This document shows positions 51,001 through 57,000 of a DNA stretch of 64,000 bases, one piece after another. The stretch lies in contig JALUEE010000047.1 of the NCBI GenBank assembly GCA_027053075.1, positions 84,082 to 148,081 on the forward strand. Reading direction: 5' to 3'. Origin of the DNA: a candidate division WOR-3 bacterium. Its GTDB lineage: Bacteria; Hydrothermota; Hydrothermia; B15-G9; WFZT01. Position numbers: made by a program. Each line of letters starts with the position of its first letter. Position 1 is the first letter of the stretch.

Positions 51001-54000
51001 TCAAATGGATACCGGGGGGAGCTAAGTGTCCCTGTTACAGCCTACCCCCATCTCCCCATCAAAGATGGCTGGCCAGTTTATATAGAAGGAGGCACCTACA
51101 CGTCCCCAATAGTCTGTGATTTTGACCCATCGTACCCGGGTAAAGAGGTGTTTATCGCAAGTTTCCCCTACGGATACATTTATCTCTATCATGCTGACGG
51201 GACGATAGCCAATGGCTGGCCCATTTTCCTCGATGGCGAGATATGGTCATCACCTGCAGCGGCAGACCTGGATGGTGATAGCATCCCTGAAATTGTTGTG
51301 GCCCTGCGTTCCAGAAACGAGGTCTATGCGTTCAAATCAGACGGCTCAATTCTGGACGGCTGGCCGGTTCACACGTACAGGGGGACTTATTACACCCCGG
51401 CAATCGGTGATATTGATGGGGATGGTTCCCCTGAGATTGTCGTAAATGACCAGAGTGCCAATCTTTATGTTTTCAGGGCAGATGGCTCTGGATTCGAGGA
51501 TTCAAGTGGAGTGTTTTTAAACGTTTCCAACTGGTGGTATGCCGGGAGTCCAGTACTCTTTGACTACAATGGTGATGGCAGGCTGGACATCGGAATCGGC
51601 TCACGAGTGAACGGATATCAGGAATTTATTGTCGTATCGGCAGGTCATGACACATTACTTGAAATACCGGTTTCAGGCAGAATGGTTAGCGCACCTGTCA
51701 TTGGCGAATTTCTCCTGGACTCAACCGGTGATGAAATTTTGATAAATGACAACAATGAGCTCAAATTATATTCACACAATGGCAACCTGCTACCTGGCTG
51801 GCTGGTCGAGGGTTTTAGTTCAGCAGTTGCAGCTGATGTAAATTACGATGGCCAGCTTGAAATTATTGGTACAACTCAGTCAGGGGTGGCTATTTACAAC
51901 TCCTCCGGGGAACTGATGATGAGCGAGAATTTTGCTGACCTCGATTATTACCTGAAGTCCCCGGTAATCGCTGATGTGGACAACGACAGGACACCAGAAG
52001 TCCTGTTTGAGAGTTTTATCGGAGCGAAGCTCTATTCAGTAAATCTGGACGGTGGTATCACACATGGATTTCCCTTTAATCTCAAGGAGAGTCCGGGCTA
52101 TTCTGTTCCTTTTATCGAGGATGTAGACGGTGACGGCTTTCTCGATATCATAGTTGGGAGCACCTTTGACAGTCTCTGGGTGCTTGCAACACCCACACCT
52201 GCTGATGGATCGCGCGCTCTCTGGAAAACAGAAAAATACGATATTGCAAGAACAGGATGGATCAGATTTATTCCCGTTACAGCCCACGAAAGTGGTGAAT
52301 GGCGAAATTTAAGATTGACTCCATCCATTACCCGGGGATACCTATTGTTTGACCCACCCCGGAATTTGGGTGGTCGTTTTAAGATTGAATTTTACGACAT
52401 ATCGGGTCGCAGGGTTGCAAAATTTCAATTTTCACGTCCACATCCTGTAAAATTAGAGCTTCCTTCTAAGCTACCGAATGGAATTTACTTTTACAGAATT
52501 CGGGCTTCATCACAAACAGCCGAAGGAAAGATACTACTTTTGAGGTAAAATGTACGAAGAGATCAAAGAAAAATTCAAAAAATTAGAGGAGCAGCTCCAG
52601 GACCCCAAAATACTAAGTAATCAGGAAAAGTACATAGCTGTAGCCCAGGAATACAAAGAGCTTAAGGAGCTTGTTTCCCTCATAGAAAAGTATGAGAATG
52701 CCACAAAAGAGCTCGATAATGTCCGCTCCATGCTGGAGGAAGAAAACGACGAGGAGATGCGGGAGTTTCTGAAGGAAGAGCAGGAGAGACTGGAGCAGGA
52801 AATAGAGAATCTGGACAAAGAGATTAAACTCGCCCTTGTTCCAAGAGACCCGGAGGATGAAAAAAATGCGATTGTTGAAATCAGGGCCGGTACCGGGGGC
52901 GAGGAGGCAGCGCTATTTGCCCGCGACCTATTCAGAATGTACTCAAAGTATGCTGAAAAGAAGGGATGGAAAATAAGTGTCACGGACCTTCATGAAACAC
53001 CTCTCGGGGGTTACAAAGAAATTATATTTTTGATCGAAGGAAAGGGAGTTTATGGCCGTCTTAAGTATGAATCAGGTGTACACAGGGTTCAGAGGATACC
53101 TGTGACAGAGACAGGTGGCCGCATTCACACCTCTTCTGCCTCAGTAGTTGTCCTCCCCGAGGCGGAAGAACAGGAGATAGAGATAAATCCAGAAGAACTT
53201 AAGATCGAAACCTTCAGGGCAAGTGGACCTGGCGGACAGCATGTTAATGTCACTGATTCAGCAGTTAGAATCACACATATCCCCACAGGAATAGTGGTCG
53301 CATGCCAGGACGAGAGGTCTCAACATAAAAACAGGGCAAAGGCACTGAGGATACTCAGAGCTCGATTGCAGGACCTTCATCGCAAGGAGCATGAGCGTGA
53401 AATTGGGAGCAAACGGAAAAGCTACATTGGCACAGGTGACAGAAGCGAGAAGATCAGAACATACAACTTCCCACAGAACAGGGTGACCGATCACAGAATA
53501 AATCTAACCATTTACAACCTTGAAGGCATCCTCGATGGAGACCTCGACGAAATCCTTGACAAACTTCAGGAAGTTGAACTGGAAAAGAAGTTAAAAGAAG
53601 CAACCACCACCTGAATTTATCTCCACCATACATTTTAAAAAACTACAAGTGATGGACCAGGTAGCTAATTACGCAGAATTCATATAATTTGAAAGGGGTT
53701 GATTGGAAGCCTTAAAATAAGACGCATAGGAGGAATGATATGGCAACAGAAATCGAGATTAAAAAAAGAGTTATAGCCACTGACTGTGGAAGTACTACCA
53801 CAAAGGCCATATTAATTGGGAAAAAAGAAGACAGTTTTAGATTAATTGCAAGAGGTGAGGCGCCAACAACGGTTGAGGCACCATTTGAGGATGTGACGCG
53901 CGGTGTTTTGAACTCCTTCCGTGAAGTTGAAGAGCTTACCGGTATCAAGATTTTAGAGGGCGAAAAAATCATCAAACCTGCCGAAGAAAATGAAGGAGTT

Positions 54001-57000
54001 GACGCATACGTCTCCACTTCTTCTGCCGGTGGTGGTCTCCAGATGCTCGTCGCGGGAGTTGTTAAAAGCATGACTGCAGAAAGTGCCGCTCGTGCCGCTC
54101 TCGGTGCAGGTGCTATTGTTATGGAGGTTATCGCGTCCAATGACGGAAGGATGCCTCATGAACGTGTGGAGCTCATCAGAAGATTGAGACCCGATATGAT
54201 TCTTCTTGCAGGTGGAGTGGACGGCGGAACCAAAAAACACGTTATTGAGCTTGCAGAGTTGATTGCCGCAGCAGAGCCAAGACCAAGATTTGGTGTTGGA
54301 TACAAATTGCCTGTAATTTACGCAGGCAATAAAGATGCAAGAGAAGATATTAAGAAAATTTTAGGCGACAAGGTCGCTCTTTACATTGTTGATAACATAC
54401 GGCCTGTTCTCGAGCGTGAAAATCTCCGCCCGGCGAGGGATAAGATTCATGAGCTCTTTATGGAACACGTTATGCAGCATGCTCCTGGATACAAGAAGCT
54501 CATGAGCTGGACAGATGTGCCCATTATGCCCACGCCCGGTGCCGTTGGACTACTTGTGGAAAAAGTTGCACGGAAAAACAATATTGAGGTGCTCGGTGTT
54601 GATATCGGTGGTGCAACAACCGACGTCTTCTCCGTGTTCCAGGGTGTGTTCAACAGAACGGTTTCCGCAAACCTTGGAATGAGTTATTCAATTTCCAACG
54701 TGATGGTGGAAGCCGGTATTAAAAACATCTTGAGATGGGTGCCTTTCAAGATTGAGGAGTCCGACCTGAGAAACAGAATCAGAAATAAGATGATCCGACC
54801 GACCACCATTCCTCAGACACTGGAGGAGCTCATTATCGAGCAGGCAATTGCGAGAGAAGCCTTAAGGCTTGCATTTCAGCACCATAAGGCAATGGCAGTG
54901 GGTCTTAAAGGTGTTCAGCAGCAGAGGACCATTTCAGATGCATTTGCACAGACCATGACAGGTGAGACGCTTGTTAACATGATGACTCTCGCTCTTATAA
55001 TCGGCTCAGGTGGTGTGCTTTCCCACGCTCCTCGTCGTCAGCAGGCAGCCCTTATGATGCTTGATGCATTCCAGCCAGAAGGTGTTACCATGCTCACGGT
55101 GGATTCAATTTTCATGATGCCACATCTTGGAGTTCTTTCTACAGTTCATGAGGAAGCCGCAACAGAGGTGTTTGACAGAGACTGCCTTATAAGGCTCGGA
55201 AGCTCCATTGCTCCAAAAGGTGTGGATAAAGAGGGCAAGCCCTGTGTAAAAGTGATTCTTGATCTGCCGAGAGGTGAGAAAAAGAAGATTCAGGTCAACT
55301 TCGGGGAGCTCGTCAGGGTGCCCCTCGGTGTGGGAGAGAAGGCAAAAGCTACAATTGAGCCCTCAAAGAATTTTGATGCTGGAGCCGGAAAGGGGAAAAT
55401 TACTGAAACTGAAGTGGAAGGTGGAGTTGTCGGATTAATCATAGACTGCAGAGGAAGACCGCTTCAGATTCCCGAAGACCCCAAGGATAGGGTTGAAAAG
55501 TTATCGAAATGGATTAAAGCCCTGGATGTTTATCCACAGGAGAAATACCAGGAACTTATAGAAAAATGGGCTTAAATTAATTCACTTGCCCATTATCAAA
55601 AAACTTGACAACCCCCACTCAGGGATTATATAAATATAAATACATCTGAAAAAACCTCTGAAGGGGGGATGAAGTATGATAAAAGAAATCGGGCCAAATG
55701 AGCCTGTGTATGTAATCAGTGTGGCAGCTCGACTTGTTGGGTTACATGTGCAAACGTTGAGATTGTACGAGAAAAAAGGGCTTGTGGTTCCAAAGAGAAC
55801 AGATAAAAAGACAAGACTGTATTCTTTGAACGACCTTAAAAAGCTAAAGCTCATAAAATACTTAACGCATGAAAAAGGGCTGAATCTTGCAGGTGTAAAA
55901 ATGGTGCTTGAAATGACCGTTGATATAGATAAGGCCCTGGAGGAATTTGAGAAGGATGAGTCTCTATAACATTGATGAAAAATCGCTTGAAATATACTTC
56001 AGAGAGATTGCCGACTCTCCTACTCTGACACCGGAGGAGGAGAGGGAGCTTATTATTCGCGCCCAGAAGGGCGATAAAGAGGCGATCGAAAAATTAATAT
56101 ATTCTCACCTCAAGTTTGTGGTGAGCATCGCAAGGCACTACCAGGGTTACGGCGTGCCTCTTGCGGACCTTATCAATGAGGGCAACCTCGGTCTTTTGCG
56201 TGCCCTCAAAAGATTTGATCCCAACAGGAAGGTGAGATTCCTATCTTATGCAATCTGGTGGATTCGCCAGGCGATTATGAAAGCCCTCAACGAGCAGTCT
56301 CGCCTGATCAAGATTTCTGGTGAGCAGCGGGCAAAGATGAAGCGCATACGCGAGGCGCAGATTGACCTGCTACAGGAAAAGGGAGTGGAGCCGACATTTG
56401 ACGAGATTGCAGAAGAGCTTGGGATTCCCACCGAAGAGGTGAAAAAGTCCTACAGTTTGATAACTTCTGAAGTTTCCCTCGATTCACCAGTTTACCCTGA
56501 CAATGAGAAGCAGACACTTGTGGATATCGTAAATCAGGATGCCCTGCCATCACCCGAAGAGGCTTACGAAGAGGTGGAGCTTGTTGAAAGGCTCAAAGAG
56601 GCCATGCAGGACCTCCGGCCGAGGGATAAGATGATACTTGAAATGTACTACGGACTCGACGATGGGCGACCCAAGACACTTGAGGAAATTGGTAAAAAAC
56701 TGGGAATTTCCAGGGAGAGGGTGAGACAGCTCAAGGAGCGTGCACTCAGAACCCTGAAGCAAAAACATGGAGAGCTACTTAAAAACCTGATATGATACAC
56801 ATACGTGAGGACCTTTTAATCGAAAAGATAAAAGAATTTTACAAGCCACATCCTCGGATAGTTAATGGATTTGGCGATGACACGATCATTCTGAAGGAGA
56901 TACCCACACAGAATCTTGTTTTCAGCGTGGATGCGACCATCGAAGGCAGGCATTTCTATCCAGATATTCTCCCGTACGAACAGGTGGGGCATAGAGCACT

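Follow-up and report, generated by a model that had tools for sequence, protein, structure and literature searches.

Gene A and its protein family

The window analysed here, 64,000 nucleotides of contig JALUEE010000047.1 (positions 84,082 to 148,081, forward strand) from a candidate division WOR-3 bacterium, carries a solitary gene flanked by prfA and a MerR-type regulator. This gene, A (53740..55575, + strand), is an open reading frame of 611 aa matched by profile to the long GlmL-like ASKHA ATPases, an activity that is predicted, and a Shine-Dalgarno sequence, AGGAGG (53728..53733, +), lies 6 nt ahead of its ATG. A promoter scan returned 5 sites against 3.7 by chance and so did not rise above chance. 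Three motifs, corresponding to the phosphate-1, phosphate-2 and adenosine motifs of ASKHA proteins, are invariant in 43/43 A members: D15-C-G-S-T-T-T-K22 (53782..53805, +), D288-I-G-G-A-T-T-D295 (54601..54624, +) and the adenosine-type G422-S-G-G425 (55003..55014, +). The GSTxT of the first is also present in true GlmL and Or-4. Between the first two motifs, an alpha/beta insert of residues 98-245 (54031..54474, +) is conserved like the ATPase core, with a mean identity of 71% over 13 lineages, and is a candidate docking domain. Finally, a C-terminal extension of about 125 aa (55195..55575, +), with a mean identity of 40%, is missing from true GlmL and Or-4.

The protein belongs to the MutL/GlmL superfamily, as PF13941 covers residues 11-482 with an E-value of 3.5e-132 (441.8 bits vs a cut-off of 27). 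It stays below the GlmL equivalog NF040745 (242.8 vs 475), TIGR01319 (182.1 vs 204.05) and the Or-4 model NF040744 (228.1 vs 600). Searching the PDB by sequence with A returned nothing up to an E-value of 1, and adding true GlmL gave only hints at the phosphate-2 motif. The insert had no usable match in a structure-cluster atlas. It resembles B12-binding domains faintly, with PF02310 sub-threshold in 7/43 members (best E 0.012). Descent from such a domain was considered and rejected, as a custom profile ranked B12 domains under decoys and the Pfam matches are sub-threshold.

Partner B, the membrane module and their gene order

The same genome encodes B, a protein of 374 aa, on a separate contig (C89:11776-12900, - strand). 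B belongs to a family of at least 8000 clusters, and its domain layout judged from sequence matches agrees with that of an earlier structural model, i.e., barrel-sandwich, swivel and KOW domains. The swivel has weak sequence matches to RraA (E 0.16) and the PA domain (E 1.3e-4), while an atlas search with it returned its own-family clusters only (0.75-0.77). The earlier note had likened this domain to that of Enzyme I; the likeness stands for the fold and fails for the phosphohistidine, as His3 is the only histidine shared by at least half of the 52 B sequences and the swivel has no conserved one. B is therefore no Enzyme I-type phosphocarrier. None of the B members matched the dehydratase-reactivase families.

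Natural fusions show that A and B constitute one soluble unit. Among the 120 long B homologues listed, 119 are A-B fusions, in two clades, with B attached to the C-terminal extension of A, and 68 are without KOW. Of these, about 15 bear 69-204 extra N-terminal residues, including an XRE-type HTH (P0328, E 3.9e-20) and a Zn_ribbon_2 (P0343), and a paralogue, A', is fused to a GntR HTH and followed by a KOW-less B'. Such fusions of the KOW-less clade to DNA-binding domains point to sensing and count against import. Scanning metagenomes with B' yielded 2 loci, with membrane genes in neither. One candidate B-DUF6754 fusion, P0299, was rejected, having an internal signal peptide and a DUF6754 domain cut at 128 of 257.

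The membrane components comprise C, identified as DUF6754 (PF20539, E 1.5e-110), and D, E and F, which, like B and a small ORF, U, have no family of their own. Gene order was surveyed in the 80 best of 552 A loci, re-annotated independently, with kin among them that are not independent. A B homologue is present in 58 loci, exactly as reported in the earlier note, and lies at most 700 nt downstream in 54, to which one called with a long overlap can be added (previously 55). DUF6754 was recounted in 41 loci (previously 38), D and E in 39 each and F in 38, while all six genes occur together in 37 loci (previously 36); 62 of the 80 extend more than 5 kb downstream of A, the same count as before. 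The order U-A-B-C-D-E-F is kept in 36 of the 37 complete loci. U, the small ORF already seen ahead of A in many loci, was found in 68/80 and just upstream of A in 64. Searching for it in this genome was unsuccessful, as before; since it is present in 42/46 genomes of the class, including 3/4 of the same genus, its absence here probably reflects an assembly gap. A further small gene, for a two-helix membrane protein, was found in 17/80 loci. The system proposed earlier as one of six to seven genes has up to eight once U and the two-helix gene are counted.

In this genome, the pieces are scattered over separate contigs, as the earlier note had it: a C-D-E-F module (C98:1227-4632, +), a C-D-E module ended by the contig edge (C97:280-2267, +), a lone C (C84:1646-2725, -), a D-E-F module (C112:12161-14290, +) and the eighth gene (C21:46318-46767, +). 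One A and one B are accompanied by three C and three D, that is, three membrane modules per A-B pair. Likewise, WOR-3 genomes hold 1-6 copies of DUF6754 each, vs a single full canonical A in each of the 10 tested.

Structural models of C and E are alike in secondary structure, with six strands alternating with helices and flanked by two membrane helices, and the positive-inside rule places their alpha/beta domains on opposite membrane faces. D and F together add about twelve conserved membrane segments. Sequence identity over 13 lineages declines from the inside outwards, from 72% in the A core and 60% in the cytoplasmic domain of C through 49-55% in B and 45% in D and F to 39% in the outer domain of E and 23% in the FN3 part of C. 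Comparing profiles, C against E and D against F, gave nothing significant and does not support paralogy, and C is fused to neither D, E nor F in any of the 120 long DUF6754 proteins that were listed, out of 1029. In Pfam and NCBIfam, sequence searches linked none of the subunits to a known transporter; PDB sequence searches gave no match for D and F and only noise for E. A fold search with the C model (pLDDT 91.6) retrieved only FN3, for residues 12-115, outside the DUF6754 domain. With the E model (pLDDT 97.2), the matches were of a generic Rossmann-like kind; SDR, flavohemoglobin and TrkA/RCK domains score within about 1 of the best, MTH777 (1kjn, Z 10.0, rmsd 3.0, 137 aligned), so that no family is named.

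In their outer parts, C and E accommodate large insertions of variable kind (FN3 repeats, propellers, CARDB, HEAT), and C in particular varies between FN3, propeller and low-complexity extensions. Such variation would suit transmembrane signalling, in which the outer domain of E senses a cue, the module relays it to C, and A-B acts as a nucleotide switch held or released at the membrane. The KOW-less B forms with HTH or Zn_ribbon_2 and the GntR-fused A' would also fit. However, an output domain is absent from canonical A-B, the 80 loci show no recurrent regulator or kinase gene, and about twelve membrane segments in D and F are presumably more than a receptor tends to need; signalling is an unlikely role, though not a negligible one.

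Contact between the soluble unit and the module was modelled by predicting A(9-596), B(153-374) and C(146-335) as three chains, with C scored. C reached a contact score of 0.54 against A-B (0.54, 0.54, 0.55), while the best of three controls, including one with A replaced, scored 0.00; the runs shared at least 88% of contacts, with a partner pLDDT of at least 76. In the calibration, which is unlike a three-chain job, 116/157 solved complexes and 2/215 mismatches passed the mark. At 0.60 or under, only 18/157 solved complexes pass, along with both passing mismatches, and a score of 0.54 hence falls in a range in which a pass is wrong more often than it is correct, unless the contact was likely beforehand. 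The cytoplasmic DUF6754 domain of C is thus weakly predicted to bind ATPase A. Together, the modelled folds of C and E, their topology and the A-C contact are judged somewhat more probable than not to be right.

Distribution and candidate functions

The system is found in 141/151 WOR-3 genomes as well as in Nitrospira, anammox bacteria, Marinimicrobia and Latescibacterota; Thermotogota, previously listed among the carriers, is represented by a single record whose label is doubted. DUF6754 is present somewhere in 79/80 A-carrying genomes, including 38/39 in which it is missing beside A. A and C are jointly present or absent in 20/20 WOR-3 genomes. Of 71 Nitrospirota genomes, 11 contain A as well as DUF6754 and the remaining 60 contain neither, which reflects linked genes in probably a single clade. 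A, B and C are all absent from 10/10 genomes of one WOR-3 genus, g27, counted as one loss event, while all three are present in 5/5 genomes of sister genera and 5/5 others tested. Gene order, co-presence and co-absence in two phyla, and fusions, together with the weak complex prediction, bear out the earlier claim that A and B go with the DUF6754 module. Taking gene order, co-occurrence, fusions, copy numbers and motifs, A, B and the module very probably belong to one system.

The homology of A to GlmL and Or-4 raises the question of whether it reactivates a B12 enzyme other than glutamate mutase, with its linkage to membrane genes incidental. As the earlier note stated, A has no glutamate mutase to serve: glutamate mutase E exceeded the cut-off neither here nor in any of 50 carriers, control genomes also being below it. 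Methylmalonyl-CoA mutase, present here and in 30/50 carriers, might be a client; it is missing from the other 20, including the near-complete G203-G205. Ornithine aminomutase (PF09043) was not detected in this genome, a lysine or ornithine aminomutase is present in 4/50 carriers, and EutB in 0/5 genomes. This patchiness contrasts with DUF6754 in 79/80, and while the true GlmL or Or-4 loci fetched adjoin their mutase genes in 4/4 cases, the 80 A loci have no recurring mutase neighbour. A B12-reactivase role is the least credible of the alternatives, and the label 'glutamate mutase L' on A is misleading, suggesting B12-dependent amino-acid fermentation where none exists.

The neighbours of the 80 loci vary by lineage. 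In 21 loci, a lipoate-related gene on the same strand is at most 1 kb away, yet it is a different gene in each lineage: gcvPB in 14 (WOR-3 and kin), lipA in 3 (Nitrospirota, downstream of pdhABC) and an lplA-like gene in 4 (3 in Latescibacterota, plus L004). These neighbours and the lipoyl-like barrel-sandwich domains of B could be read as a role in importing lipoate or octanoate or in repairing lipoyl enzymes. In lipoyl domains, the modified lysine sits at a hairpin turn, where the B consensus has none. LipA matches occur in 39/40 carriers, and g27, without the system, retains LipA (9/10), LplA/LipB (10/10) and GcvP (4/5), for which reason lipoate auxotrophy was rejected as the reason for the system; a lipoate role at large is very improbable.

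A family-5 peptide-binding protein gene lies within 1 kb in 10/80 loci, opp genes separate A from B at L038 and L063, and an ilvE-like gene is a neighbour in 7. The peptide-binding/opp, gcvPB and ilvE-like neighbours were counted in favour of import. The autotrophs Nitrospira and Brocadiales, however, keep a single intact copy, which fits poorly with nutrient import. That copy, and the spacer-like look of the variable outer extensions of C, would suit envelope assembly or macromolecule handling, with A as a cytoplasmic scaffold of the kind exemplified by PilM and MreB and the complex moving or building a lipid, lipoprotein or surface structure. But across lineages there is no recurrent outer-membrane, pilin or polysaccharide gene, and the system was lost from a whole WOR-3 genus and is missing in 60/71 Nitrospirota, leaving such a function decidedly improbable.

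Alternatively, a solute may pass through C-D-E-F and be phosphorylated or ATP-activated by A-B, for which glycerol kinase behind GlpF and the A subunits of hydantoinase and oxoprolinase are precedents. Consistent with this, Hydantoinase_A is the next-nearest family for 43/43 A members, A is 72% conserved with six near-invariant histidines, and B has the invariant motif GATQIRAGVxRPE. Against it, no downstream pathway gene recurs, and the motifs of A are common to GlmL and Or-4, which PMC4682846 describes as accessory or reactivating proteins. A facilitator with its kinase is quite unlikely, if less so than an envelope function.

A proposed mechanism and its likeness to known systems

Most likely, ATPase A powers a four-protein membrane complex, and this complex, found in many uncultured bacteria, would be a so far undescribed type of membrane machine. 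The favoured account, put tentatively at slightly below even chance, is that A-B is a reactivase-type, ATP-driven chaperone common to several modules in the membrane, which most likely import solutes. A-B would correspond, in two pieces, to the chaperones that reactivate B12 enzymes, which pair an actin/Hsp70-fold ATPase with a swivelling domain, and, no longer serving a B12 enzyme, may dock on the cytoplasmic alpha/beta domain of C. C+D and E+F would form an inner-membrane complex with one alpha/beta domain on each face, and ATP binding and hydrolysis by A would let the C domain be bound and then released, driving a conformational cycle of the complex. Several paralogous modules could use one A-B unit, as with the ECF energising module, and the most likely job would be import of a solute, candidates being amino acids, peptides or a small cofactor. 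ATP hydrolysis, the chaperone-like cycle, transport and the substrate class are what we infer.

It could further be speculated, with appreciable doubt, that this is a new class of primary active transporter, whose shared B12-reactivase-type motor drives alternating access in a pseudo-symmetric C-D-E-F. Here, the insert of A, possibly a mimic of a B12-binding domain, would dock on the DUF6754 domain in the cytoplasm, and a branch of the motor without KOW would, on several occasions, have become the sensing part of DNA-binding regulators. ATP-driven solute transport is familiar from ABC/ECF, P-type, rotary and ArsA-type ATPases, and is not known from actin/Hsp70-fold motors. Literature searches by name and by accession found no paper on DUF6754 or its system. 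Beyond the earlier note, the present analysis contributes the A-B fusions, the predicted opposite faces of the C and E domains, the three modules per A-B pair and the A-C prediction.

A shares with GlmL/MutL (PF13941, NF040745), which accompanies the coenzyme-B12 glutamate (methylaspartate) mutase, and with Or-4 (NF040744), from the ornithine aminomutase cluster, the ASKHA family, nucleotide motifs and alpha/beta insert, at 27-33% identity. Unlike these proteins of 461-467 aa, A has 611 aa, no mutase and an obligate, often fused partner, and travels with a membrane module; unlike GlmL, it does not lie between glmS and glmE. In its modelled beta/beta/alpha swivelling fold, B is like the phosphohistidine domain of PTS Enzyme I, RraA and the PA domain, differing from Enzyme I in the missing histidine. 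GdrA/DdrA, the alpha subunits of the glycerol/diol dehydratase reactivases, combine an Hsp70-like ATPase and a swivelling domain in one unit; A-B would resemble them in architecture, the swivel of B being suggested by the earlier model and weak matches. B12 dehydratase (PF02286) was found in 0/5 genomes, where no control matched either. According to PMC7674605, which cites the structure PDB 1NBW, the GDHt reactivase alpha subunit has ATPase and swiveling domains, and an alpha/beta partner subunit is released on ATP hydrolysis. A-B differ in that no A or B member matches the GdrA/DdrA families by sequence, the swivel lies within B between the barrel-sandwich and KOW domains, and the predicted target is a membrane subunit.

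In Group II ECF transporters, one energising module is common to several interchangeable, genomically scattered membrane modules. The present system differs from ECF and other ABC transporters in its ASKHA ATPase, no ABC family being among the 22 families matched by 43 A members, and no subunit is homologous to ECF by Pfam or NCBIfam. What it has in common with Group II ECF is the arrangement, in which a single ATP-using unit of one A and one B stands beside several membrane modules, with three C and three D in this genome.

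Gene A and its relation to B12-dependent mutases

The GlmL-like ASKHA ATPase, here called A, is an ORF of 611 residues at 53740-55575 on the forward strand, between prfA and a MerR-type gene, with AGGAGG on the same strand six bases 5' of its ATG. In profile searches, residues 11-482 matched PF13941 at 441.8 bits, and A missed the accessory GlmL cut-off (242.8 vs 475), that of Or-4 (228.1 vs 600) and that of TIGR01319 (182.1 vs 204.05). Its nearest named relatives among the best 80 of 552 matches are Hydrothermota/WOR-3 records (76-80% identity). Its ASKHA phosphate-1, phosphate-2 and adenosine motifs are invariant in 43/43 aligned relatives. 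The same motifs occur in true GlmL and Or-4; these proteins are 461-467 residues long, are 27-33% identical to A, lack its last 125 residues and adjoin their own mutase genes in 4/4 loci fetched. An alpha/beta insert (residues 98-245) averages 71% identity over 13 lineages, on a par with the core; its faint, sub-threshold likeness to B12-binding domains (7/43 members, best E 0.012), which further comparisons did not confirm, may serve as a lead only. Downstream of A, at 55676-56795, come a gene with a MerR-type HTH and one of the sigma-70 family. In loci L002 and L123, A is likewise followed by a sigma factor, an order that is kept among close relatives, yet lies outside the system.

The earlier note held that A has no glutamate mutase to serve, and this is supported: neither GlmE nor KamD/OraE was found in this genome, which holds split MCM and MetH, and glutamate mutase E over cut-off was absent from all 50 genomes surveyed, picked for spread from the 80 carriers of A. 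Lysine/ornithine aminomutase occurred in four and methylmalonyl-CoA mutase in 30 of these 50, and EutB in none of five genomes. A is tracked by none of the B12 enzymes counted, which makes a role as a B12 reactivase highly improbable.

The A-B unit and its operon

The best 80 of 552 loci, 62 of them with more than 5 kb downstream, were annotated independently, and the gene counts reported earlier were reproduced within three. The soluble partner B is present in 58 loci, the DUF6754 membrane subunit C in 41, its membrane partners D, E and F in 39, 39 and 38, and the small ORF preceding A, U, in 68. All six core genes are found in 37 loci, in the order A-B-C-D-E-F in 36. DUF6754 is encoded elsewhere in 38/39 genomes lacking a copy beside A, and hence in 79/80 genomes. 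An eighth gene, coding for a small membrane protein whose two hydrophobic segments precede a PH-like region (bPH_2/YcxB, E 0.1), directly adjoins U in 17/80 loci from several phyla (e.g., L017:7815-8231). In 17 Nitrospirota loci (e.g., L078:16669-18078), F is followed at short distance by a gene for a Memo-like protein that is extended at its N terminus (faint PqqD match). Genome G031 carries a second set of A (fragment), B and U at a contig end (C73:1-1679, L118), its B only 55% identical to P0002 and the set perhaps acquired from another lineage. The labels of L025, L039, L022 and L034 (Thermotogota, Enterobacteriaceae, Desulfuromonadaceae) poorly fit protein identities and gene order, and the taxonomic spread taken from such labels may be overstated.

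Within the phylum, DUF6754 is found in 141/151 genomes (one to six copies each), including 46/46 of this genome's class. The ten genomes without it all belong to WOR-3 genus g27 and also lack A and B, an absence that counts as one loss, not many independent events. Both A and B were present in ten DUF6754-positive genomes tested, five of them from sister genera of the same family. In the phylum of a Nitrospira carrier (71 genomes), A and DUF6754 occur in the same 11 and neither in the other 60; this pattern probably comes from one clade in which the genes are linked, again not from many independent events. It is very probable that A, B and C-F belong to one system.

In this genome, the system is scattered, with one A, one B (C89:11776-12900, reverse strand) and three membrane modules: a complete C-D-E-F lies on C98, C-D-E interrupted by the contig end on C97, a lone C on C84 and D-E-F on C112. 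The eighth gene stands alone at C21:46318-46767, ahead of a yggS-yggT-divIVA-like run. A search for U found none here; it is present in 42/46 class genomes. In this genome and in G006, the gene immediately upstream of B encodes a TMEM260-like glycosyltransferase with a TPR tail (L001:8903-11698, reverse strand; L124:5439-8330). A single run at C33:94940-102017 (reverse strand) comprises a lipB-like gene, 2-oxoacid/acetoin dehydrogenase E1a-E1b-E2, a glyoxalase-like gene and a TRAP transporter.

A and B form one unit. Among B homologues longer than 655 residues (122 found, 120 listed), 119 of those listed are fused behind PF13941; the single apparent B-C fusion is an artefact. About 50 are canonical A-B fusions, the named ones from Marinimicrobia, Planctomycetota and Ozemobacteraceae, and 68 form a divergent clade without the KOW part, with named members from Cloacimonadota, Delongbacteria and Fermentibacteria. 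RnfC_N (barrel-sandwich hybrids) matched 47/52 B members and KOW 21/52, and the middle domain weakly resembles swivelling-fold families (PA, E 1.3e-4; RraA, E 0.16). The domain layout of the earlier structural model thus agrees with the sequence matches; its likening to Enzyme I does not extend to function as a phosphocarrier, since the middle domain has no conserved histidine. The divergent A'-B' proteins (L116:3004-6196, L117:264-3441, L131; P0325-P0392), about 45% and 36% identical, lack the KOW domain and the N-terminal MAHAYTPG peptide and are mostly single fused chains. Some carry N-terminal GntR, XRE-HTH, zinc-ribbon or other additions, possibly making them a family of ATPase-sensor regulators. 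Such KOW-less fusions show that an A-B unit can be coupled to regulators and favor transmembrane signalling as the role of the system, which we nevertheless consider unlikely.

The membrane module and its possible cargo

In the model of C (pLDDT 91.6), an FN3 domain is followed by two membrane helices that flank a six-stranded alpha/beta domain; the model of E (pLDDT 97.2) has the same layout without FN3. Lys/Arg counts around the first helix place the alpha/beta domain of C putatively inside (4.8 after vs 1.1 before) and that of E outside (3.1 before vs 1.4 after). In a fold search, the E domain resembled Rossmann-type domains in general (best Z 10.0), and profile comparison gave no support for C-E paralogy. 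For D and F, each with some six hydrophobic segments, family and PDB sequence searches returned no match. One loop of E's outer domain accepts insertions of 100-560 residues (CARDB-like, HEAT repeats, helical; P0149, P0206, P0134, P0126), and P0126 contains the E domain twice. Mean identity over 13 lineages falls from 72% in the A core and 60% in the C inner domain through 49-55% in B and 45% in D and F to 39% in the E outer domain and 23% in FN3; the outer part of C is variable or missing, and its inner domain is 59-71% identical among three paralogues in this genome. This gradient is what would be expected if several modules dock on one conserved motor.

One complex was predicted, from residues 9-596 of A, 153-374 of B and 146-335 of C, C being the scored chain, in three runs and three controls. 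It reached 0.54 in three runs that agreed with one another, sharing 88% or more of their contacts with a partner pLDDT of 76 or higher. The best of the three controls, among them one with A swapped out, scored 0.00. The mark was reached by 116/157 solved complexes and 2/215 mismatches in calibration, but at 0.60 or below stood only 18 of those complexes and both mismatches, and the A-B-C job is unlike the calibration. The prediction thus lends weak support to an A-C contact, which we regard as moderately probable because genomics already made it likely.

Neighboring genes differ by lineage. gcvPB lies directly upstream in 14/80 loci, a family-5 peptide-binding protein is encoded no more than 1 kb away in ten, and in L038 and L063 the genes of an opp operon are interspersed with those of the system; ilvE-like genes are near seven loci, lipA near four and lplA-like genes near four. 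Lipoate-related genes lie within 1 kb in a striking 21/80 loci and would favor a service to lipoate metabolism, yet carriers have LipA, and g27 retains LipA, LplA/LipB and GcvP without the system, leaving this role improbable. Several modules per WOR-3 genome and one in Nitrospira fit importers of different specificities; that autotrophs keep the system speaks for a broader function than nutrient import. A facilitator plus kinase is less likely than signalling, and envelope assembly less likely again.

Proposed mechanism and known systems

A-B may act as an ATP-driven chaperone of the reactivase type, binding and then releasing the inner domain of C, and this cycle would power C-D-E-F, probably a solute importer, with A-B common to several modules. 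This reading as a whole is tentative, at a little under an even chance. MutL/GlmL is termed a chaperone for glutamate mutase reactivation in PMC4682846. For the alpha subunit of glycerol dehydratase reactivase, PMC7674605 describes ATP hydrolysis freeing an alpha/beta subunit from a swiveling domain, the ATPase and swivelling domain being joined in a single unit, a make-up that A-B would share. Any likeness of B's putative swivel to that domain would be one of architecture, no B member having matched a dehydratase-reactivase family. Sequence searches found no solved structure homologous to A, D, E or F, and a literature search on DUF6754 and the families concerned, with supplementary gene tables and most subscription journals outside it, gave nothing on the system. 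The system as a whole matches no described kind, and A adds a new branch to a known ATPase family.
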